The notes beneath the pieces were generated by a model that saw only the letters and a program-made list of their open reading frames with translations, had not been told where the DNA came from and ran no database searches. Of a DNA stretch of 64,000 bases, positions 845 to 12,040 are shown piece after piece. Both the position numbers and the translations under genes were made by a program. Each line of letters starts with the position of its first letter. Positions within the stretch are counted from its first letter, which is position 1. Location: NCBI GenBank assembly GCA_016187175.1, contig JACPKG010000002.1, positions 12,922-76,921 on the forward strand. Direction: 5' to 3'. This DNA comes from Candidatus Saccharimonadota bacterium. GTDB lineage: Bacteria > Patescibacteriota > Saccharimonadia > Saccharimonadales > UBA10212.

Positions 845-3037
845 ATGGAGCGTTATAGTAAGACAAAACTAGCCATAAAAATGGGACTGGTTGCCTTACC
901 AATGGCCTTGGTGGGGATTTTAGTTTCTACGTTAGCAGTTTCTACTTATAAAGACTATAAGCCAGGCAGGATAGTATCGGCCGTAACTCAAAACGGCCTA
1001 ACGGCTATACTTGGCGAGTCAACCGACTATATGTCGCCTGGAATGTCTTATCCTTCGACTTGCCCGGCGCCATATACTGGCACACCGCCAAACTGCCAAG
1101 CTCCGGCTAGTTACACTTATCCGACAGATGGAACAGGTGGTAGTTCAACTACTACACAGCCACCGACCCAAACTTATACATCACCGACTTCAGGCACTTC
1201 CGGATCAACCACTCCAACTTCCGGATCAACCACCACCAACCCTCCCAGTTATTCTTATCCGTCATCGGGGTCGGGTAGCATATCCCAGCCAGCAGCCGGC
1301 AGCCCAACCACCAGTCCACCGACTACTAGTAGCGGTGAATCCGAAGCTTGTTGTCGGGCTCCAGGTGATCCAATCCAGGGATCAACAGGGTCAACGGGGT
1401 CGCAATCAAGTGGTTCAAATCAGGGTCAAAGCAGCGGCCAATACGTTCCACCACCTCCGACCTATAGTCGAAGTGACTCTGGAAGTTGCATGGAGAATAT
1501 GCTTGGCGCCGAAGCCTATGCCAAATTCCGCTCTGGTGGTTTCCAGCCCACCGCCGACCAAATCGCCAGAGCCTCTAGCTGCTTTAGCGCGCAGGTCAGT
1601 TATGGCTCTTCGTCTGGAAGTGGCCAAAGCGGTGGCGGGTCTGGCGGCCAGTCCAACAGCGGGCCTTCTGCACAATCAGGTTCCAGCCAGCAACCGGCCT
1701 ATGCTTCAATTGCCATAGCTCCCCCGCCGGCTTTCCAAGCCGATTCACCAATGGTCGCCTGCGCGAAGTCCATAGTGGGCGATCGTTACGGCAGCCAGCC
1801 ATCAGCCGAACAAATGGATCAGATTCGGTCTAAATGTTTTAACCAAGCCTCATCCGGACACCAAATTGGCTACATAGACCCTAGTGGTCAAGGTGGCAGA
1901 GACGGTTCTCTGCCGGGCGTTGCAATTAGCAGCGTAGGTCCTGGCGATAAAGCCGGCTCGCCTCCGTCCCTGCCGCCAGAAGTTAAAGCCTGTGTGATAA
2001 AAGCCGGCATGAGTGAGTCTACTATTGCCGCCATCCAGCGCGGCCAATCGCCGACCGCCGCGCAGCAGCAACAGGGCGAAAGCTGCTTTAACCAGTACGC
2101 TAAAGATAAGGGCTACACACCACCCATGCTGACGCCGCCCGATCCTACACAACCGTTTGACCCCAGCTCTAAACAGAACCAATGTGCCGATTTGGTAGCC
2201 CAAACCCACGGCATTAGGGTTAACCAGATAAACCCGGGCATTGTAGCAACTTGGAGCGCTGATGATATCAGTAAAATGCGATCGTGCTATGGCGTTTCAC
2301 CAACGACTTCGGCTGGTAATAATACAATGGCCTTTGCGCCGACTAGCCCCCAGGTTGCCGTAGCTAGCTCTAAGCTCAGCTGTATAGAACAAGCGGTCGG
2401 AGCCGATAAACTGGCTGCAGTGGTAGCCGGTACGGCGTCCATTAACGATAGCGATCGCCGAACAGTGTACGACAAGTGCATTAACCCGACCAAGATTGCC
2501 GCTAATGCCGATCCAGCCCTGCTGGGCATTCTGGCTGCCATGCCGCCATCGGATCTGGAAGGCCAGTTTATTCCTGTCGATGCACAAATCTTACCGGCGC
2601 CGACAGCCGCTGGTACTAGCCAAACTTCGGCTGACGCTGAAGTAGCTATCGGCGGTGAAGTTAATGTAGCCGCCGGTACGACTCTGCCGACAAAGATAGA
2701 CGTGTTTGTTAAATCTACCCCGCAAACCTTTACTGTTTCTCTGAAGAAAATTACTGCCACAAAAGCCACTTGGACAATCAACGTCGGCCAAAACAAACTG
2801 CCGCTTGGTAATCACAAGGCTTACGCTGTTGCGACTTTAGCCGATGCTACACAGACGCGCAGTCCAGATGCCAGCTTTGACATTACCGCCGCTAAAGCCA
2901 CAAAGAATAACGTTACGATAATTGTGGCTGCCGCCGCGGGCGCAGTAGCTCTTGTTTTGGGCGCCTGGATGGGCTGGCGTTGGCATCACAAACAACCTTT
3001 GCTGTCTTTTAGGCTTCCTTGGAGAAAACACGGCTAA
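845..3037 (+). CDS. large secreted/cell-surface protein, Ser/Thr/Pro/Gly-rich low-complexity, with N-terminal signal/TM and C-terminal TM anchor
   Basis: 730 aa. The N-terminus has a hydrophobic LVALPMALVGILVSTLAV segment, long PT/SG-rich tracts follow, and the C-terminus has IIVAAAAGAVALVLGAWMGW plus a basic tail. Confidence 0.6.
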   Translation: MERYSKTKLAIKMGLVALPMALVGILVSTLAVSTYKDYKPGRIVSAVTQNGLTAILGESTDYMSPGMSYPSTCPAPYTGTPPNCQAPASYTYPTDGTGGSSTTTQPPTQTYTSPTSGTSGSTTPTSGSTTTNPPSYSYPSSGSGSISQPAAGSPTTSPPTTSSGESEACCRAPGDPIQGSTGSTGSQSSGSNQGQSSGQYVPPPPTYSRSDSGSCMENMLGAEAYAKFRSGGFQPTADQIARASSCFSAQVSYGSSSGSGQSGGGSGGQSNSGPSAQSGSSQQPAYASIAIAPPPAFQADSPMVACAKSIVGDRYGSQPSAEQMDQIRSKCFNQASSGHQIGYIDPSGQGGRDGSLPGVAISSVGPGDKAGSPPSLPPEVKACVIKAGMSESTIAAIQRGQSPTAAQQQQGESCFNQYAKDKGYTPPMLTPPDPTQPFDPSSKQNQCADLVAQTHGIRVNQINPGIVATWSADDISKMRSCYGVSPTTSAGNNTMAFAPTSPQVAVASSKLSCIEQAVGADKLAAVVAGTASINDSDRRTVYDKCINPTKIAANADPALLGILAAMPPSDLEGQFIPVDAQILPAPTAAGTSQTSADAEVAIGGEVNVAAGTTLPTKIDVFVKSTPQTFTVSLKKITATKATWTINVGQNKLPLGNHKAYAVATLADATQTRSPDASFDITAAKATKNNVTIIVAAAAGAVALVLGAWMGWRWHHKQPLLSFRLPWRKHG

Positions 3038-3143
3038 TAGTAACGTCCAGCAACGATCATAGCACCGGACCAGGCAGTCAGCCATCCACGGTGGCCAAAG
3101 TTGGCATGAGCCGCGAACCCCCCCAAAAAACTGACCCAGTAGT

Positions 3144-3212
3144 GAGCCCGCTGGATAAAATGCCAGTCTCCGAAGCTGGAAGTTGCAGGTTCGAGTCCTG
3201 CCGGCCTCACCA
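3144..3212 (+). tRNA. atypical/pseudo tRNA-Arg(CCG)-like element
   Basis: It has a canonical anticodon arm (CCAGT-CTCCGAA-GCTGG, anticodon CCG), T-arm (GCAGG-TTCGAGT-CCTGC), 3' acceptor CGGCCTC, discriminator A and CCA. The 5' acceptor GAGCCCG has one mismatch and there is no proper D-stem. It is only 69 nt. Confidence 0.3.
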
Positions 3213-3277
3213 CTGTAATTGTATATTTTAGAACCCAGAGTATAATAGTAAGTACCAACTATTGAGGGTTTTGTTTT

Positions 3278-3946
3278 ATGAAGCTTGCTCTGAAAACTCA
3301 GGCTGTATCTTTACGAAAAAAGGGTAAGACTTATTCGGAAATTCGTACGGCGATTGATCATGTTTCAAAATCAACGCTCTCCAGGTGGTTAAAAGACGTA
3401 GCTCTTACCCCTGAGCAAGAGGCACAGATTAAAAATAAAATGATAACCCAAGGCCACGCCGGACGGCTAAAGGGCGTTTTGCGAAATAAGCAGAAAAGGA
3501 TAGAGCGTCTTGCTAAAATTAGTACACAGGCAAAAAAAGAATATCCAAAATTAATTAAAAATCCTCGATTTATGGCTGGTTTAATCCTGTACTTAGCAGA
3601 AGGTAATAAAAAACATGAAAGATTTGGGTTTATGAACTCCGATCGTTATTTGGTTGAAATAATGGTGCGTTGGGTCAAAGACTTTGGAAACATCGAAGTT
3701 GACGATATAAATTACAGATTGTACATCCATGATGTTTACGCTCATGAGAATTGCGAACAATTATGGTCAGATTTTCTGCAGCTGAACTCAGGCCAACTAT
3801 TCAAGACTGTTTACAAGCAAACACCGCATAAAATTAAAAAAAATCCACTATACAAAGGCTGTATGAGGATGGAAATCTCAGGTAGTGAGTTATATTGGAA
3901 GGTGATGACTTGGCAGCAATGTTTATACAAGTCACTAAAAATATAG
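3278..3946 (+). CDS. AT-rich gene for a protein with an N-terminal HTH (KSTLSRWLKD) and a LAGLIDADG-like homing-endonuclease-like core (GLILYLAEGNKKHERFGFMNSDRYLVEIMVRWVKDFGNIEV)
   Basis: 222 aa. The codon composition is visibly more AT-rich than its neighbours. The motif spacing resembles single-motif LAGLIDADG enzymes such as I-CreI (YLAGFVDGDGS...LVDEIGVGYV); the family assignment is tentative. Confidence 0.4.
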   Translation: MKLALKTQAVSLRKKGKTYSEIRTAIDHVSKSTLSRWLKDVALTPEQEAQIKNKMITQGHAGRLKGVLRNKQKRIERLAKISTQAKKEYPKLIKNPRFMAGLILYLAEGNKKHERFGFMNSDRYLVEIMVRWVKDFGNIEVDDINYRLYIHDVYAHENCEQLWSDFLQLNSGQLFKTVYKQTPHKIKKNPLYKGCMRMEISGSELYWKVMTWQQCLYKSLKI

Positions 3947-3950
3947 TTAA

Positions 3951-4025
3951 GCCTCCGTGGTGAAATGGATATCACGACAGTCTTCGGAACTGTTGTTGGG
4001 GGTTCGAATCCCTCCGGGGGCACCA
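3951..4025 (+). tRNA. tRNA-Arg (anticodon TCG), CCA encoded
   Basis: The cloverleaf was folded by hand: acceptor GCCTCCG/CGGGGGC (one G-U pair), D GTGA/TCAC, anticodon arm ACAGT-CTTCGGA-ACTGT, T GGGGG-TTCGAAT-CCCTC. It is 75 nt. Confidence 0.75.
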
Positions 4026-4063
4026 AGCTGCTGAGCCAGCATCGCGGACACCGGACCAAGATA

Positions 4064-4597
4064 TTAAAACCGGTAAGTTAAATTTTCGGTTATGATCATT
4101 TTAAGTGGTATGTCATGAGCTTCGCCGAATGAAGTTGTTTGCCGGCCGAATTCGTAACATAAACCGATAGTTAAGGCCCTTTTCTGGGTCTTTAGATACT
4201 CGTCATAAAAACCGCCGCCATAACCAATACGGTGTCCGTCTTTGTCAAAGCCTAAAAGCGGCACGATAATAAGATCAAACTGATAATTTTCCGGTACGGT
4301 TTTTTGGAAGCCGGCATCATCAAACCAGAAGCTTTTATAAATAGCGCTTTGTTGTTTCCAGGCGGCGGTTTTGACTTGGGGGTATCGGCGCCGGATAACA
4401 CCCAGCAGTAAGTTCGTGTCCGCCTCACGCTGCTGTTTTATCGGCAGATAGATATGCAAGCTACTTATCTTCGTCCAATCAACAATATCCAAAAGTTGAC
4501 TGGTCATATTTTGGCTAAGGCTTTTAACCTGGCTAGCACTTAACTCTAGCCGCTCTTTTTTTAACCTTTGCCGCAGATCCGCCTTGCTGTTTGCCAT
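4064..4597 (-). CDS. 5-formyltetrahydrofolate cyclo-ligase (MTHFS family)
   Basis: 177 aa. The GYGGGFYDEYL motif and the nucleotide-binding N-terminus are family-typical. Confidence 0.65.
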   Translation of the reverse strand: MANSKADLRQRLKKERLELSASQVKSLSQNMTSQLLDIVDWTKISSLHIYLPIKQQREADTNLLLGVIRRRYPQVKTAAWKQQSAIYKSFWFDDAGFQKTVPENYQFDLIIVPLLGFDKDGHRIGYGGGFYDEYLKTQKRALTIGLCYEFGRQTTSFGEAHDIPLKMIITENLTYRF

Positions 4598-4613
4598 GCT
4601 GGAATTGTAGCAT

Positions 4614-4690
4614 TGGAGGGCCCACTGGGACTCGAACCCAGGACACTCTGCTTAAGAGGCAGATGCTCTAACCAACTGAGCTATGGGCCC
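4614..4690 (-). tRNA. tRNA-Lys (anticodon CTT), CCA encoded
   Basis: The reverse complement GGGCCCATAGCTCAGTTGGTTAGAGCATCTGCCTCTTAAGCAGAGTGTCCTGGGTTCGAGTCCCAGTGGGCCCTCCA folds as a canonical cloverleaf. Confidence 0.85.
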
Positions 4691-7232: not shown

Positions 7233-7255
7233 TGTGATAGGTTAGACCTATCACA
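7233..7255. repeat. REP-like palindrome, family 1, second left copy abutting/overlapping the tnpA start codon
   Basis: The sequence is identical to the 7153-7175 copy. Confidence 0.8.
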
Positions 7256-7878
7256 TGCCAAGCAGGAATATAGTTCGGGAGTTCGTTTCTGATAGCTATT
7301 ATCATATTTATAATCGTGGAGTAGAGAAACGAGTAATCTTTACTGATGAGCAAGATTACACGGTTTTCTTAGGTCTATTGAAGAAGTATCTGTCTGGTGA
7401 ACCGCCAGGCAAAGAAAACAGGCATCTTTTTAAGAGTTTTCAGGGCGAGCTCTCTCTTTTGGCTTATTGCTTAATGCCCAGCCATTTCCACCTACTTTTT
7501 TATCAATCATCAGAAAAAGCATTTGCGGAATTGATGTGTCGATTGTGCACTGGTTACGTTATGTACTTCAATAACCGGCACCATAGAATAGGCGGTCTCT
7601 TCCAGGGGCCATATCGGGCTTCTCGCATTGATGAAGATGGATATTTACATCACATATCAAGATATATACACCTGAACCCAGAAGATTATAAAAATTGGCC
7701 ATACTCAAGCCACTCAGTTTACACAGGAGTAAAAAAGACAGTGTGGGTAAACACAGAACTGATTTTGGGCTTATTTAACAATGACCCAAAAGAGTATCAG
7801 GAGTTTTTAGATGATTACGTAGACAGCAAAGCCGAGCTGGCGATTCTCAAACATCAGCTAGCTAATGACTTAGAGTGA
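7255..7878 (+). CDS. tnpA: IS200/IS605-family HUH (Y1) transposase, likely a REP-associated tyrosine transposase (RAYT-like)
   Basis: 207 aa. It has the HuH motif MPSHFHLLF and the catalytic-Tyr region YLHHISRYIHLNP. It is flanked by cognate palindromes on both sides. Confidence 0.8.
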   Translation: MPSRNIVREFVSDSYYHIYNRGVEKRVIFTDEQDYTVFLGLLKKYLSGEPPGKENRHLFKSFQGELSLLAYCLMPSHFHLLFYQSSEKAFAELMCRLCTGYVMYFNNRHHRIGGLFQGPYRASRIDEDGYLHHISRYIHLNPEDYKNWPYSSHSVYTGVKKTVWVNTELILGLFNNDPKEYQEFLDDYVDSKAELAILKHQLANDLE

Positions 7879-8618: not shown

Positions 8619-8806
8619 TCTGCTCTTAATTCCCATAACCGACTACTTAATTTGTTTTTGATCTGTCCTTTTGGGCAAGGCACCAAGGTGATACATGTCT
8701 TTGTATTGTACTGTCGCTTTGGTGTCTTGCCCAACCCTCAAGGGTAAGGGCAGACCCGGTGATTGCGCACGCTGGTCTCCTGAACCACGACCACCGGGAG
8801 GTGATC

Positions 8807-10531
8807 ATGAGTACCTTGCGCAAGACCACGACCGCCTTTCTGGTGGTCGTGGGGCTCGCCGCCGCCATCGCGCCCTCGGGCGCATCGGCGGCGAGCGACG
8901 CAGACCGCCGCCCGCGGCTCAACCGCGTTGTCGAGCACGGAGCGAACTCCGTGGCCGACATCCGCCGAGCCGCGGCGCAGTACCCGCAGTATCGAGAGAT
9001 GCTGCAGAACGAGCTGGACATGGATGGCTGGGACCCGTCCATGCTGCAGCTCGGCCCCGTCGTCAACATCGGCGACGGGGAGCAGATCGTGAACCAGGGG
9101 GTCGCCCCTGGGACACGGCAGCTTGTCGCCTACCCCGACCGCGGACGCGGTTACACGTACCGAAAGGTCGTGAACCGCGCCAACGGGAAGTTCGTGATCG
9201 TCAAGATCAGGTGTGGGAACCTGATCAAGACGTTCCGGGTTCCCGCGGAGCGGGTGAAGATCATCACCCGCTACCGTACGATCTACAAGATCAAGTACAT
9301 CAACCGGGCCGCGGAGATCGTTCCGCGCGGATCCGAGGCGCAAGCCAAGGCCACCGCCGGTGCGGTCGCCACGAATAACATCGACATCAACAACCGGCCG
9401 AAGGTCACCGTCACGGTGAAGCCGAAGATCACGGTCAAGCCGACCGTGAGCGTGACGGTGAAGGTGCCGGGGCAGAAGACCGCCCCGGCAAAGCCCAAGC
9501 CGGCGCCAACCCCGGCCGTGAAGTACGGCCGGTTGACGATCACCAAGGCCACTCCCGGTGTGGCCCGCGCCTGTTTCCGTTTCCACCTCTGGGTGGTCAA
9601 GAGCGGCAGGTGGGCGCGCTCGACCGACTTCTCGCTCTGCACCGGGCAGAGCAAGAGTTACAGCCTCCGGACGTCGACCAACGTCGGCGTGACGGAGAAC
9701 GCTGCCCGCGGGTGGAGTCCCGCAGCAGCGTGCGTTCGGAAGATCGTAGCGGCCGGGGTCCGCTGCGACTTCGTCAACCGGAAGGTCGCGGTGGCCCCGG
9801 GGGAGTTCACCGCGACCGTATCTAAGAAGGTCGTGAACTCGGCCATGACGGCCGATTTCACGACCTTCTACAATTTGTTCCGCCTGCCCGTGGCGGTGTG
9901 GATCAACGGGCAGGCGGCGTATACGGTGCTGGTTCCCATGGACGGGAACCGGTACGCGGTTTCGAAGGACGGCATCTCCCCGTTCGTGTTCAAGAAGGGG
10001 GACGCCGTGAAGTTATGCGAGGACCTCGGGTTCGCCCGAGGTCTCGTGCTCGAACCCGTCGCGCCGGTGGCGGCCGACGGGTGCCTGGTTGCGCAGAAGG
10101 GAGGGCCTGGCCTAGAGGTCTTTTCCTTCATCAACCGGGCAGTGGAGGGGGTGAGGCCCCAACCCCCGCCCCCGGCGGTTCAGCCACCGCCGGCGGCGCC
10201 TCCCACGGCGCCGCCGGTGACGCCTCCGACCCCGGCGCCGAAGACCGGGGCTCCGGGTCCCGGCACAACTACGCCGGGACAAGCAGGTGGCCCGGGAGCC
10301 GTCGGTTCGCCCGCCGCGGGCTCCGGCCCGACGTGCCGGGACGCCTCCGGGAACGTTGTTCCCGGGACCACCGGCGCCTCGGGGAACTGCCCGGGAGCGG
10401 TCCCCCCGACGACGGGGGCGCCCGGGCCGGCGGCGGGATCACCCCCCCCGCCCCCGACGGGGAACTGCCTAGACCCGGCAACGGGCCAGTCCCGGGCCGG
10501 GGCGAAAGATCAGTTCGGCTACTGCGTCTGA
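8807..10531 (+). CDS. secreted protein of unknown function with a signal peptide, Lys-rich KPKITVKPTVSVTVKVPGQK repeats, a Cys-containing central domain, and a C-terminal Pro-rich linker plus Cys-containing tail; high-GC codon usage
   Basis: The start was chosen at MSTLRK, 6 nt after GGGAGG. The signal peptide reads TTAFLVVVGLAAAIAPSGASAAS. The gene is 574 aa. Confidence 0.6.
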   Translation: MSTLRKTTTAFLVVVGLAAAIAPSGASAASDADRRPRLNRVVEHGANSVADIRRAAAQYPQYREMLQNELDMDGWDPSMLQLGPVVNIGDGEQIVNQGVAPGTRQLVAYPDRGRGYTYRKVVNRANGKFVIVKIRCGNLIKTFRVPAERVKIITRYRTIYKIKYINRAAEIVPRGSEAQAKATAGAVATNNIDINNRPKVTVTVKPKITVKPTVSVTVKVPGQKTAPAKPKPAPTPAVKYGRLTITKATPGVARACFRFHLWVVKSGRWARSTDFSLCTGQSKSYSLRTSTNVGVTENAARGWSPAAACVRKIVAAGVRCDFVNRKVAVAPGEFTATVSKKVVNSAMTADFTTFYNLFRLPVAVWINGQAAYTVLVPMDGNRYAVSKDGISPFVFKKGDAVKLCEDLGFARGLVLEPVAPVAADGCLVAQKGGPGLEVFSFINRAVEGVRPQPPPPAVQPPPAAPPTAPPVTPPTPAPKTGAPGPGTTTPGQAGGPGAVGSPAAGSGPTCRDASGNVVPGTTGASGNCPGAVPPTTGAPGPAAGSPPPPPTGNCLDPATGQSRAGAKDQFGYCV

Positions 10532-10547
10532 CGCAGTAGCCGAACTG
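10511..10547. terminator. 37-bp palindrome (16-bp arms CAGTTCGGCTACTGCG / CGCAGTAGCCGAACTG) centred on the TGA stop of the cargo gene
   Basis: The arms are a perfect inverted repeat. It may be a terminator or a recombination site; there is no U-tract. Confidence 0.4.
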
Positions 10548-10683
10548 GTAACCCGTCCGTGTGATACCGTGCGGGCGGGTGGGACTAACGGCTAACGGTA
10601 TAGGTAGTCGGGTGGGGCGAGGTTTCGTTCGATGAGATGGTCGCCTCGGCGACTGCAGAACTCTTGAGCAGAGACTCGCCCCA

Positions 10684-10719
10684 CCCCGACGCCGTAGAGC
10701 AAAAGCTCCGGCGTCGGGG
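10684..10719 (+). terminator. GC-rich stem-loop CCCCGACGCCG-N14-CGGCGTCGGGG in the 3' region of the high-GC insert
   Basis: The stem is a perfect 11 bp. Confidence 0.3.
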
Positions 10720-10931
10720 TCACATACCCTCATTTGTTACTCCTCGGGAAGAGCAGCCCGAGCGTCGGATTTACTCCGCGCCCGGCGCGATGGGAAACCC
10801 CGAAGGGGTGTCCTATAAGGCGAAGCCGTTTTAAAGCCCAATAACTATCTAGTTTGCGAAAGCCTTAACAGATTTGTTCTGGCTAATCGTTAAAATTTAA
10901 CTAAATTCGATTTTAAGAAAGGAATTAAATA

Positions 10932-11777
10932 ATGCGTATGAAACTAGCTTTAACAAGCTTGCTTAGCGCGGTCGCAATAGTGGTTATGCCCGGCATTGCG
11001 TTAGCCGGATTTGCGCCGGCTGACCGCGCGACCCTCCAGTGTATTAGCCCAACCAACTGCCCGGGTGCCAGCTACGTGACTTTTAACTCGTTTACCAACG
11101 CTCCTAACTACGGAGACGAAAGGGCCTTTTTTGACGCCAAAGACGCTTCGATTACAAGTCCAGGCGGCTTCCAAGATAAGCTGACCGTAACCCACGGTCA
11201 GAGGATCTTTATGCGCGTCTATGTGCATAACAATGCCAACGAGTCTGCCATTGGTCAGGCGGCCGCTACGGCTAAAAATACTCGCATCCAGGCACTCCTG
11301 GAAACCAATAAGAAAACCAGCCACGTGGCGTCTGCTGCCATCACCGCAGACAACGCTAATCCGGCCACAGTTAGCGACACGGTCGAGCTGACTGGCGCCA
11401 ACCCGTTCACCATGGTGTTTGATAGAAACGCGCCGGTTAATGTTACCTACCGGCCTAACGGCACCGGCGATTGGGTGACCCGACCACTGCCTGGTGCTAC
11501 CTTCGCTAATGACCAGACAATCAACGCCAATGTTGGCGATTGGAGAGGCTGCTTCGAGTTCGGAGCACTAATCACCTTCACAGCCATTGTTAGTATGGAT
11601 GTACCAAAAATAGAAGTACCGCCACAAATCCCGCCTACACCAACTCCTCCTTCCGCTGGAAAACCGGGCGCACTGCCGGTAACTGGTGGTGCTGGTAGCG
11701 TTTTGGGCGTGTTTACGGGCGTAAGTGCTGCTGCCGGCGCTGTCCACTATTTGTGGGGCCGCCGGTTCGGCCAATAA
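10932..11777 (+). CDS. LPXTG-motif cell-wall-anchored surface protein
   Basis: 281 aa with a signal peptide MRMKLALTSLLSAVAIVVMPGIALA. The C-terminus has LPVTGG, a hydrophobic segment and an RRFGQ tail, which is a sortase substrate pattern. Confidence 0.65.
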   Translation: MRMKLALTSLLSAVAIVVMPGIALAGFAPADRATLQCISPTNCPGASYVTFNSFTNAPNYGDERAFFDAKDASITSPGGFQDKLTVTHGQRIFMRVYVHNNANESAIGQAAATAKNTRIQALLETNKKTSHVASAAITADNANPATVSDTVELTGANPFTMVFDRNAPVNVTYRPNGTGDWVTRPLPGATFANDQTINANVGDWRGCFEFGALITFTAIVSMDVPKIEVPPQIPPTPTPPSAGKPGALPVTGGAGSVLGVFTGVSAAAGAVHYLWGRRFGQ

Positions 11778-11831
11778 CCCGCCGAAATTTCAAAGAAATT
11801 TTTGCGGGCGAAGACAAAAATAACTTTGCAG

Positions 11832-11847
11832 GGGAGCCTTCGGGCTC
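11832..11847 (+). terminator. GGAGCC-TTCG-GGCTCC hairpin downstream of the LPXTG gene, followed by CTTGCAAG-type palindromes
   Basis: The hairpin was read directly from the sequence. Confidence 0.3.
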
Positions 11848-12040
11848 CTCTTGCAAGTCTTGCAAGGACAGTCCTTGCAAAAATAAACACTGGTCAAAAC
11901 TGCCAAAATGTGCTAGCGTTTAAATAGAGCAATCCCACAGGGTTTCGCTCTTCCTCGCAATCTGGTTGCAGACTGCTTTGAAGGAGGAAACCCAAAGGGA
12001 CAAGTCGTGACTGACCGCTCATCGCAAATAGGTGGAGTTA

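Follow-up and report, generated by a model that had tools for sequence, protein, structure and literature searches.

The 64,000-nt window analyzed here, part of contig JACPKG010000002.1 of a Candidatus Saccharimonadota assembly, holds a 669-nt open reading frame (ORF, 3278-3946) that starts 65 nt past a defective tRNA-Arg(CCG)-like element and ends 4 nt ahead of an intact tRNA-Arg(TCG). An original prediction for this stretch had described a markedly AT-rich gene with a helix-turn-helix (HTH) and a LAGLIDADG-like core between a crippled and an intact tRNA, and had suggested a mobile-gene insertion. The positions that it gave for the ORF and both tRNAs all hold in the ORF list and in our ARAGORN calls; the downstream tRNA is indeed intact, and the gap is 4 nt rather than the 5 nt proposed (the stop codon ends at 3946 and the tRNA starts at 3951, so that the figure of 5 counts up to the first tRNA base). 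The GC content of the ORF, 0.375, is the minimum of the window, below that of every 669-nt segment sampled along the 64 kb (mean 0.491, standard deviation 0.046). We called tRNA genes with ARAGORN and Infernal/Rfam, and the Rfam scan of the locus returned tRNAs only. The ORF is solitary, with no integrase or transposase beside it in the ORF list of the window, and we found around it no transposon structure and no terminal or flanking inverted repeats beyond chance. Its 222-aa product is identical to HYW36_00335, a "hypothetical protein" of a Candidatus Saccharibacteria metagenome-assembled genome (MAG). Overall, we favor, at a probability of roughly 0.55, the reading that the ORF is a free-standing, site-specific homing endonuclease gene at the border of tRNA-Arg(TCG) and belongs to a large, unannotated, tRNA-abutting family with clade-specific tRNA partners. 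The enzyme, an HTH plus a single LAGLIDADG-type domain, would presumably act as a homodimer.

The ORF appears to carry its own promoter. An exact TATAAT box precedes the ATG in the window and in two related loci, L085 and L086, and the distance from box to ATG is about 29 to 33 nt in all three. In the family as a whole, 35 of 85 ORFs have an exact TATAAT in the 100 nt ahead of them, compared to 12.6% of shuffles. A consensus promoter scan missed the box of the window because its -35 hexamer is weak. This box is the sole promoter-like element that could drive tRNA-Arg(TCG) as well; the short gap between ORF and tRNA leaves no room for a promoter. With so few nucleotides between stop codon and tRNA, the tRNA would have to be cotranscribed with the ORF.

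Several lines of evidence bear on the protein itself. A word-indexed search returned 75 homologues at E ≤ 1e-3, and an exhaustive HMMER search returned 2,557 clusters (50% identity) at the same threshold and 780 at E ≤ 1e-10, nearly all of them 215 to 235 aa long. The ratio of nonsynonymous to synonymous substitution rates (dN/dS) was 0.06 to 0.26 between closer family pairs, indicating that the family proteins are functional and not relics; the ORF is not a chance frame. An AlphaFold2 (AF2) model built on a 52-sequence alignment reached a predicted local distance difference test (pLDDT) score of 96.2. It consists of a three-helix HTH (aa 2 to 38), one 48-residue helix (aa 45 to 92), and an alpha/beta domain in the order helix 96-108, strand 117-120, helix 123-137, strand 144-151, two short helices, strands 178-180 and 195-200, and helix 204-219. 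The predicted N-terminal HTH is borne out both by the three modeled helices and by Pfam HTH_23, which matches 82 of 107 family members (best E 1.8e-8); for the 222-aa protein alone the match (E 4.1e-4) lies under the gathering score. Matches to HTH_SB (Sleeping Beauty PAI subdomain) were found in 38 members, and the family profile aligns with that subdomain at E 3e-3.

Evidence for the nature of the C-terminal domain comes from matches to homing endonucleases. In a phmmer search of the PDB, the sole match was domain 2 of I-DmoI (E 1.1e-3), with LYLAEGNKKHERFGFMNSDRYLVEIMVRWVKDFG aligned to LYVAEGDKTLKRLRIWNKNKALLEIVSRWLNNLG. A 107-sequence family profile improved this match to E 1.6e-4, hhalign gave P 1.1e-4 (probability 56%), and the PADLOC "HEase" profile matched aa 98 to 153 (E 6.7e-5). 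Three independent sequence searches, among them profile searches of the PDB and with PADLOC, point to homing endonucleases. The I-DmoI and I-CreI sequences used for hhalign were entered by hand; the I-DmoI stretch in the HMMER output agrees with the one entered. The family motif [AG]103-L-Y-[WL]-[AGS]-E108-G109-x-K closes helix 96-108 of the model and is followed by strands. Its helix has small residues at helix-packing positions and ends in an acidic residue followed by Gly, as is characteristic of LAGLIDADG motifs, and Glu108 aligns with the catalytic Glu117 of I-DmoI. The YLAEGN and NSD motifs rank among the most conserved columns of the family (of 107 members: L104 in 98, Y105 in 100, E108 in 95 plus D in 2, G109 in 105, K111 in 95, N120 in 96, S121 in 96, D122 in 97). 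These data suggest that the C-terminal domain is likely of LAGLIDADG type; if so, it would have a divergent core with a 43-residue insertion (aa 152 to 194) that holds the invariant W163 and G194. One long relative, P0186, gave a faint LAGLIDADG_3 match (E 0.027) in a different region of the protein.

The ORF is polymorphic at its site. Using the neighboring gene for 5-formyltetrahydrofolate cyclo-ligase (protein 75% identical), we located a related locus, L087. There, 29 nt with a TATAAT box separate the orthologue of the surface-protein gene from tRNA-Arg(tcg), after which comes the ligase gene. By blastn, L087 1-923 aligns with window 2063-2985 at 72.5% identity without gaps, and L087 1013-1651 aligns with window 3956-4622 at 75%. 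The 970 nt between these alignments in the window (2986-3955) correspond to 89 nt in L087, and about 880 nt with the ORF and the defective tRNA are absent there. L087 is an orthologous empty site, and the ORF is an insertion/deletion polymorphism, which bears out the proposed mobile-gene insertion at the level of presence and absence. A 37-nt core of tRNA-Arg(TCG) (nt 7 to 43), identical in the window, L085, and L086, was found on eight metagenome contigs; the ORF is absent from seven, and the one that bears it is arranged as L086.

Other tRNA junctions are likewise found both tight and filled with a family ORF. His and Arg(tcg) are 35 nt apart in L010, with the ORF between them in L001, L011, L013, and L016; Pro and Gly(tcc) are 9 nt apart in L001 and filled in L036, L040, L042, L048, and L050. 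Phe and Gly(gcc) are 4 to 21 nt apart in L053, L064, L075, and L079 and filled in L083, and Arg(tcg) and Lys(ctt), 1 nt apart in L086, are filled in L031. Some copies are damaged: those of L058 and L071 are frameshifted, and that of L038 is truncated.

A search of JGI metagenomes with an exact 31-mer from the right flank of the window gave no match and hence no empty allele of the same species. Logan assemblies of three other samples (L090, L091, and L092) are identical in sequence to the window and span 2974-4022. All three end in the 3' half of tRNA-Arg(TCG) (at 4006, 4019, and 4022), and two begin at 2974/2975. These contig ends could reflect graph branching caused by strain variants with or without the block, or merely repeated tRNA k-mers or single-nucleotide polymorphisms among strains. 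Because the latter may account for them, we set the breaks aside as evidence for population polymorphism.

We examined the placement of the family in 80 loci from GTDB species genomes and several more found by exact protein look-up, in total 85 loci with 89 family ORFs, which we located with a family hidden Markov model; tRNAs were located with ARAGORN. A tRNA gene edge lies within 30 nt of 75 of the 89 ORFs. In the most common arrangement, seen for 63 ORFs, a tRNA of the same strand begins -24 to +29 nt from the end of the ORF. Nine ORFs face a convergent tRNA and stop 1 to 29 nt short of its 3' end, three start 15 to 22 nt past a tRNA, three more (L021, L085, and L086) run through into the tRNA, and two contigs end at the ORF. 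At about 45 tRNAs per Mb, we estimate that a random gene would end so near a tRNA in well under 1% of cases. In 19 other loci we see the order found in the window, ORF and then tRNA-Arg(TCG), the two being -13 to +18 nt apart.

In a neighbor-joining tree of the proteins, built with no bootstrap, the clades track the partner tRNA: Arg(tcg), which includes the window, Arg(tct)/Arg(cct), Gln(ttg), Lys(ctt), Val(gac), Gly(tcc), and Ile(tat), along with a mixed group at Gly(gcc), Pro(tgg), and Phe(gaa). At Gly(tcc) and at Ile(tat), ORFs on the strand of the tRNA and ORFs convergent with it form sister clades. Because the acceptor stem is self-complementary, the same acceptor-stem sequence (e.g., GCGGGTG) stands directly past the stop codon on the ORF strand in both arrangements, and this property could be what allows a single specificity to settle at both ends of a tRNA gene.

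Individual loci show variations on this placement. In 12 of them (L022, L042, L045, L047, L053, L058, L063, L065, L076, L079, L081, and L083) the ORF and the tRNA overlap by 10 nt, the stop codon of the ORF being T8-A9-G10 of the tRNA; RNase P cleavage at these loci would strip the stop codon from the mRNA. In L085 (279-1049), L086 (1151-1909), and L021 (2042-2824), gene callers ran the ORF through tRNA-Arg(TCG), and the deposited proteins carry a C-terminal tail of translated tRNA (e.g., ...PRGEMDITTVFGTVVGGSNPSAGT in P0003), an annotation artifact. Exceptions to the usual order are L010, in which the ORF (2216-2890) follows tRNA-Arg(tcg) at a distance of 92 nt, past a terminator-like hairpin, and has no tRNA after it, and the Arg(cct) clade (L024, L025, and L026), in which the tRNA lies 15 to 22 nt upstream of the ORF start. 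Several clades can share one genome, since two loci each hold two members at different tRNAs within about 4 kb: L016 (2998-3726 and 3995-4672, ahead of tRNA Lys and Arg-tcg) and L083 (864-1559 and 3989-4657, ahead of tRNA Val-gac and Gly-gcc).

In this sample, the family was found mainly in assemblies of the Candidate Phyla Radiation (CPR)/Patescibacteria. The MAGs of 11 loci (L008, L024-L028, L031, L045, L049, L068, and L076) carry the labels Planctomycetales, Gammaproteobacteria, Omnitrophota, Actinomycetota, Dormiibacterota, and Anaerolinea; either the family extends beyond CPR bacteria or these contigs were misbinned. We found no close relatives among IMG/VR viral contigs, and full-text searches limited to an open-access library gave no account of the family or of tRNA-abutting LAGLIDADG genes in bacteria.

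The element upstream of the ORF (3144-3212) is best understood by comparison with L086, where the ORF homologue is 60% identical to that of the window. The order in L086 is an HTH_31 gene, 23 nt, an intact tRNA-Arg(CCG), 52 nt, the ORF, tRNA-Arg(TCG), 1 nt, and tRNA-Lys(CTT). Upstream of its defective tRNA, the window has a 57-nt remnant (3062-3118) that matches the inside of the L086 HTH_31 gene (838-894) at 80.7% identity (E 1.3e-8, blastn) and the intact copy of this gene in the window itself at 75.9% (619-672; E 3e-5, blastn). That intact copy (230-769) is 68% identical in protein to the L086 copy, and both match HTH_31. An additional island, CCCAAAAAACT, matches the end of the L086 gene, and homology to the intact L086 tRNA resumes at nt 17 of the tRNA (window 3152-3200, 83.7%). 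Set against L086, the gene remnant of the window is short of two stretches, of about 69 nt and about 18 nt; some 30 nt with the TATAAT box of the tRNA are missing as well, and so is either the 5' acceptor strand or the spacer together with the 5' D-stem strand. Over about 0.9 kb (about 3062-3950), neighbor-gene remnant included, the window is colinear with L086. Co-conversion of donor markers on the flanks would be compatible with this pattern; the alternative is a deletion in the lineage of L087.

The element itself is 69 nt long, with the anticodon at position 27 instead of 34-35 in the ARAGORN call. Its anticodon arm, T-arm, 3' acceptor strand, and CCA are intact; the D-stem and -10 box are missing, the D-arm model is filled by 7 nt in place of 13, and the acceptor contains one C:C mismatch. 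As a result of comparing Rfam scores, we found 33.2 bits for this element (gathering threshold 29), compared to 60 to 74 bits for the other tRNAs of the window and related loci. A canonical cloverleaf with a 7-bp acceptor and a 3- to 4-bp D-stem does not form, and the minimum free energy fold is no better than those of shuffles (z -0.45). ARAGORN and Infernal call an abnormal tRNA, neither a normal one nor nothing, in line with the 5' acceptor and D-region defect that had been predicted; with the homing endonuclease matches above, the outcome that would have refuted the original prediction did not occur. The defect faces away from the ORF and accompanies deletions that also took the -10 box and most of the neighbor-gene remnant. 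From these comparisons, the element is probably a pseudogene, the decayed counterpart of the intact L086 tRNA-Arg(CCG) carried along as a passenger.

Near the ends of this region we also noted an exact 10-nt direct repeat, CACCGGACCA, at 3063-3072 and 4049-4058, which brackets the remnant, the pseudo-tRNA, the ORF, tRNA-Arg(TCG), and the next 23 nt. The left copy is at the start of the L086 homology, and the right copy lies across the end of 28 nt that L087 lacks. We considered the repeat as a possible target duplication and set that reading aside, given that about 0.75 such pairs are expected by chance and that L087 has no single copy.

The ORF has several features of a selfish gene: it is solitary, has the lowest GC content in the window, is accompanied by no integrase, transposase, or inverted repeats, and has damaged copies in relatives. 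As would be expected of a free-standing homing gene, its site is polymorphic for presence and absence, it has its own promoter-like box, and no intron, intein, or terminal repeats are present. A set of observations nevertheless weighs against a homing endonuclease. Pfam LAGLIDADG_1, LAGLIDADG_2, and LAGLIDADG_3 matched no member in a set of 52 or in that of 107, NCBIfam returned nothing, and hhalign found no match to I-CreI. Foldseek searches of the PDB and BFVD gave no hit at E ≤ 1e-3, and template modeling (TM) scores of I-DmoI to the model are only 0.22 to 0.34, equaled by the unrelated alpha/beta sandwiches YfiB, RidA, and IspF. The LAGLIDADG-like core of the original prediction has support in the I-DmoI and PADLOC matches and in the conserved motif, but not in Pfam or in fold comparison. 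The polarity of the L087 difference may be either an insertion in the lineage of the window or a deletion in that of L087. Most family copies are intact and under purifying selection across deep divergences, which fits domestication as well as active homing. Finally, no immunity polymorphism is visible in the tRNA core between ORF-bearing and ORF-free alleles. We rejected the idea of an immunity allele, since nt 7 to 43 of the tRNA are identical with and without the ORF; a target confined to these nucleotides would not protect the carrier, which favors a site across the 5' junction that the insertion disrupts.

Under the homing endonuclease reading, the protein would dimerize through its motif helix, and the HTH would bind the border of the tRNA gene. 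The enzyme would cleave an allele without the ORF at the 5' tRNA border or close to it, and repair from an ORF-bearing copy would place the ORF, with its own -10 box, directly ahead of the tRNA. After insertion, the tRNA would be cotranscribed from the ORF promoter and freed by RNase P; the insertion would thus be harmless to the tRNA and hard to delete without silencing it. In the window, the ORF may have arrived, or may survive, in a block like that of L086, made up of the HTH_31 remnant, tRNA-Arg(CCG), and the ORF. In the simplest history, this block would have entered an L087-like site beside tRNA-Arg(TCG) by double-strand-break repair, with donor flanks co-converted as in T4 SegB. Useless passengers would then have decayed, tRNA-Arg(CCG) losing its -10 box and D-stem.

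We compared the family with known systems. I-DmoI, an archaeal LAGLIDADG homing endonuclease encoded in an rRNA intron, represents the only solved family matched by sequence: aa 89 to 155 of the query correspond to I-DmoI 101 to 168, LYLAEGNKK is aligned over LYVAEGDKT, and the order of helix, strands, helix, and strand is alike. It differs in being an intron-encoded monomer of two domains, whereas the protein of the window is free-standing, with one domain, an HTH, the 48-residue helix, and the 43-residue insertion, and the structural similarity is weak. WhiA, a regulator encoded on bacterial chromosomes, likewise joins an HTH to a fold of LAGLIDADG type. Its gene is conserved and single-copy, its two degenerate LAGLIDADG domains are devoid of catalytic acids, and its HTH is C-terminal; in contrast, the window family has one domain, retains the Glu, carries its HTH at the N terminus, and is patchily distributed. 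Biologically, two systems come closest, T4 SegB and the single-domain LAGLIDADG enzymes of CPR rRNA insertions. The latter are common in such insertions, and one of them, I-ShaI, is active and dimeric (PMC11270868). These enzymes, shown or presumed to work as homodimers, share with the window family the organism group, the single domain, and a conserved stable-RNA gene as landing site; they lie inside 16S and 23S genes and must leave the RNA, whereas the window family lies outside the tRNA, at its border, and has an HTH. The paper that describes them mentions tRNA 0 times (PMC11270868). The homing endonuclease SegB of phage T4 is encoded by a free-standing gene within a tRNA cluster; it recognizes a site that contains the conserved T-psi-C motif, and it spreads flanking tRNA genes (PMC2330249). 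Its co-conversion of these tRNA genes matches the block structure seen in the window. SegB differs in being a GIY-YIG enzyme of a phage, at one locus, with no radiation of clades by tRNA and no base-to-base placement against a tRNA.

Two other explanations of the ORF deserve consideration. It could encode a domesticated, non-cutting DNA-binding factor similar to WhiA that binds the neighboring tRNA gene and regulates or insulates tRNA transcription. This is unlikely, even though the HTH is the only domain with clear profile support, most copies are intact with the low dN/dS values given above, the ORF brings the sole promoter-like box ahead of the tRNA, and the clade-by-tRNA pattern could come from long vertical co-inheritance. 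The uniform single-copy presence of WhiA is not seen here: the family is patchy, with up to two copies per 8-kb locus, L087 is empty, most contigs with the same tRNA core (7 of 8) lack the ORF, and tRNA genes that sit close together with no ORF between them are common. Of 107 members, 97 retain the acidic residue of the motif, which WhiA has lost, and neither the GC minimum at the ORF nor the existence of pseudogenized copies is what a domesticated factor would lead us to expect. Even less probable is another kind of mobile gene, a small tRNA-targeting transposase or recombinase inserted without homing, with a novel nuclease C terminus that resembles LAGLIDADG superficially. The resemblance of the N-terminal HTH to the PAI subdomain of Tc1/mariner and Sleeping Beauty transposases, the JGI label "transposase-like" on one member, the fold search with no significant LAGLIDADG match, and an insertion point that is strikingly precise in unrelated clades would all suit such an element. 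Profile scans of the 222-aa protein and family members, however, found no DDE, serine recombinase, or tyrosine recombinase domain, terminal inverted repeats and a convincing target duplication are lacking, and the significant C-terminal matches are to homing endonucleases only. Pfam, NCBIfam, and PHROGs contain no model that covers the C-terminal domain of the family; PHROGs gave no match for the 222-aa protein and matches in the HTH region only for two relatives.

The defective tRNA also admits other readings. That it is a functional tRNA-Arg(CCG) with a reduced D-arm is unlikely. It passes the Rfam gathering threshold and is called by ARAGORN, its anticodon loop keeps U33 and A37, six of seven acceptor pairs and the CCA are present, and its T-arm differs from that of L086 by compensatory changes (GCAGG/CCTGC compared to ACAGG/CCTGT). 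Its D-stem, however, cannot form, its homology to L086 begins only at nt 17, the -10 box of L086 is deleted, its fold does not stand out from shuffles, and L087 does without this tRNA at the locus; moreover, tRNA-Arg(UCG) can read CGG by standard wobble rules. The original prediction had suggested that the insertion may have damaged or duplicated a tRNA or left an attachment-site remnant. Duplication fails, since the element is the counterpart of the L086 tRNA-Arg(CCG) and not a copy of tRNA-Arg(TCG). It is also very improbable that an integrative element with a tRNA gene as its attachment site left this element behind as a remnant of that site or as a partial duplicate. tRNA genes are classical integration sites, and a 31-nt direct repeat joins the 3' ends of both tRNAs (3182-3212 and 3995-4025); the repeat is, however, only 74% identical and lies in two different tRNAs, which points to general conservation of the T-arm and acceptor. 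The inserted DNA is a single ORF with no integrase, the defect is on the 5' side, whereas attachment-site duplicates are 3' fragments, and L086 has an intact tRNA-Arg(CCG) at the same relative position. Given these comparisons, we retain the reading of a homing endonuclease gene with a decayed passenger tRNA. The features of the locus are collected in Table 1.

Table 1. Features at and around the ORF, with positions in the 64,000-nt window
Feature	Position	Strand	Basis or remark
Remnant (57 nt) of the 3' part of an HTH_31/XRE-type gene	3062..3118	+	blastn to L086 838-894 and to the window's own copy at 619-672; marks the left part of the L086-colinear block
tRNA-Arg(CCG)-like element, probable pseudogene	3144..3212	+	ARAGORN, Rfam
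TATAAT, -10-like box of the ORF	3241..3246	+	Read from the sequence; also in L085 and L086
GAGGG, ribosome-binding site	3264-3268	+	9 nt before the ATG of the ORF
Putative free-standing homing endonuclease gene, 222 aa (NCBI HYW36_00335)	3278..3946	+	ORF list, homologues, AF2, dN/dS
N-terminal helix-turn-helix, paired/PAI-like, aa 2-38	3281..3391	+	Pfam HTH_23, Sleeping Beauty PAI match, AF2
Single 48-residue helix, aa 45-92, joining the HTH to the alpha/beta domain	3410..3553	+	AF2, pLDDT >95
LAGLIDADG-like alpha/beta domain, aa 96-219	3563..3934	+	I-DmoI and PADLOC HEase matches, column conservation
Motif GLILYLAEGNKK with putative catalytic Glu108	3578-3613	+	Within the LAGLIDADG-like domain
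Intact tRNA-Arg(TCG), partner tRNA of the window's family clade	3951..4025	+	ARAGORN; Rfam 64.2 bits
tRNA-Lys(ctt)	4614-4690	-	ARAGORN; Rfam 73 bits

Elsewhere in the window, a gene at 845-3037 (+) encodes a 730-aa protein rich in Ser, Thr, Gly, and Pro, with a C-terminal hydrophobic segment and no Pfam match; it is probably a surface protein, and it is the gene that aligns without gaps to L087 at 72.5% nucleotide identity. An IS200-like Y1 transposase gene at 7255-7878 (+; Pfam Y1_Tnp, E 2e-6) has a GC content of 0.40 and is the second AT-richest spot of the window. A Y1_Tnp gene also adjoins murD in the syntenic locus L088. A GC-rich island at 8700-12000 (GC 0.57 to 0.66, compared to 0.45 to 0.52 elsewhere) contains a 590-aa ORF rich in Pro, Ala, and Gly (8759-10531) with no Pfam match, and it may be foreign DNA or an assembly chimera.

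Homing endonuclease genes have so far been placed in introns, inteins, and rRNA insertions, or as free-standing genes in phages. A wider reading, which we offer tentatively and consider possible rather than probable, is that the family represents an undescribed radiation of more than 2,500 clusters (50% identity) of tRNA-gene-specific homing endonuclease genes that use the border of tRNA genes, mostly the 5' leader, as a safe harbor. Each clade would be specific to one tRNA gene, the ORF promoter would capture an essential tRNA, and RNase P would separate mRNA from tRNA, a processing-based equivalent of intron or intein splicing. Sister clades at the 5' end or, inverted, at the 3' end would be explained by an acceptor stem that reads alike on both strands. 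If true, a chromosomal bacterial family at tRNA genes, with one clade per tRNA, would occupy a niche new to selfish genes, a leader or trailer that host processing cuts from a stable RNA. Such a family would also offer a natural panel of compact nucleases, each with an HTH and a single domain, for many conserved targets of 20 to 30 bp, which would be of interest for enzyme engineering, and it would flag annotation artifacts, namely ORFs that run into tRNAs and passenger pseudo-tRNAs. For the window, the AT-rich gene and the crippled tRNA would both be explained without an integrative element, and for CPR bacteria more broadly the family would help to account for genome plasticity at tRNA clusters.

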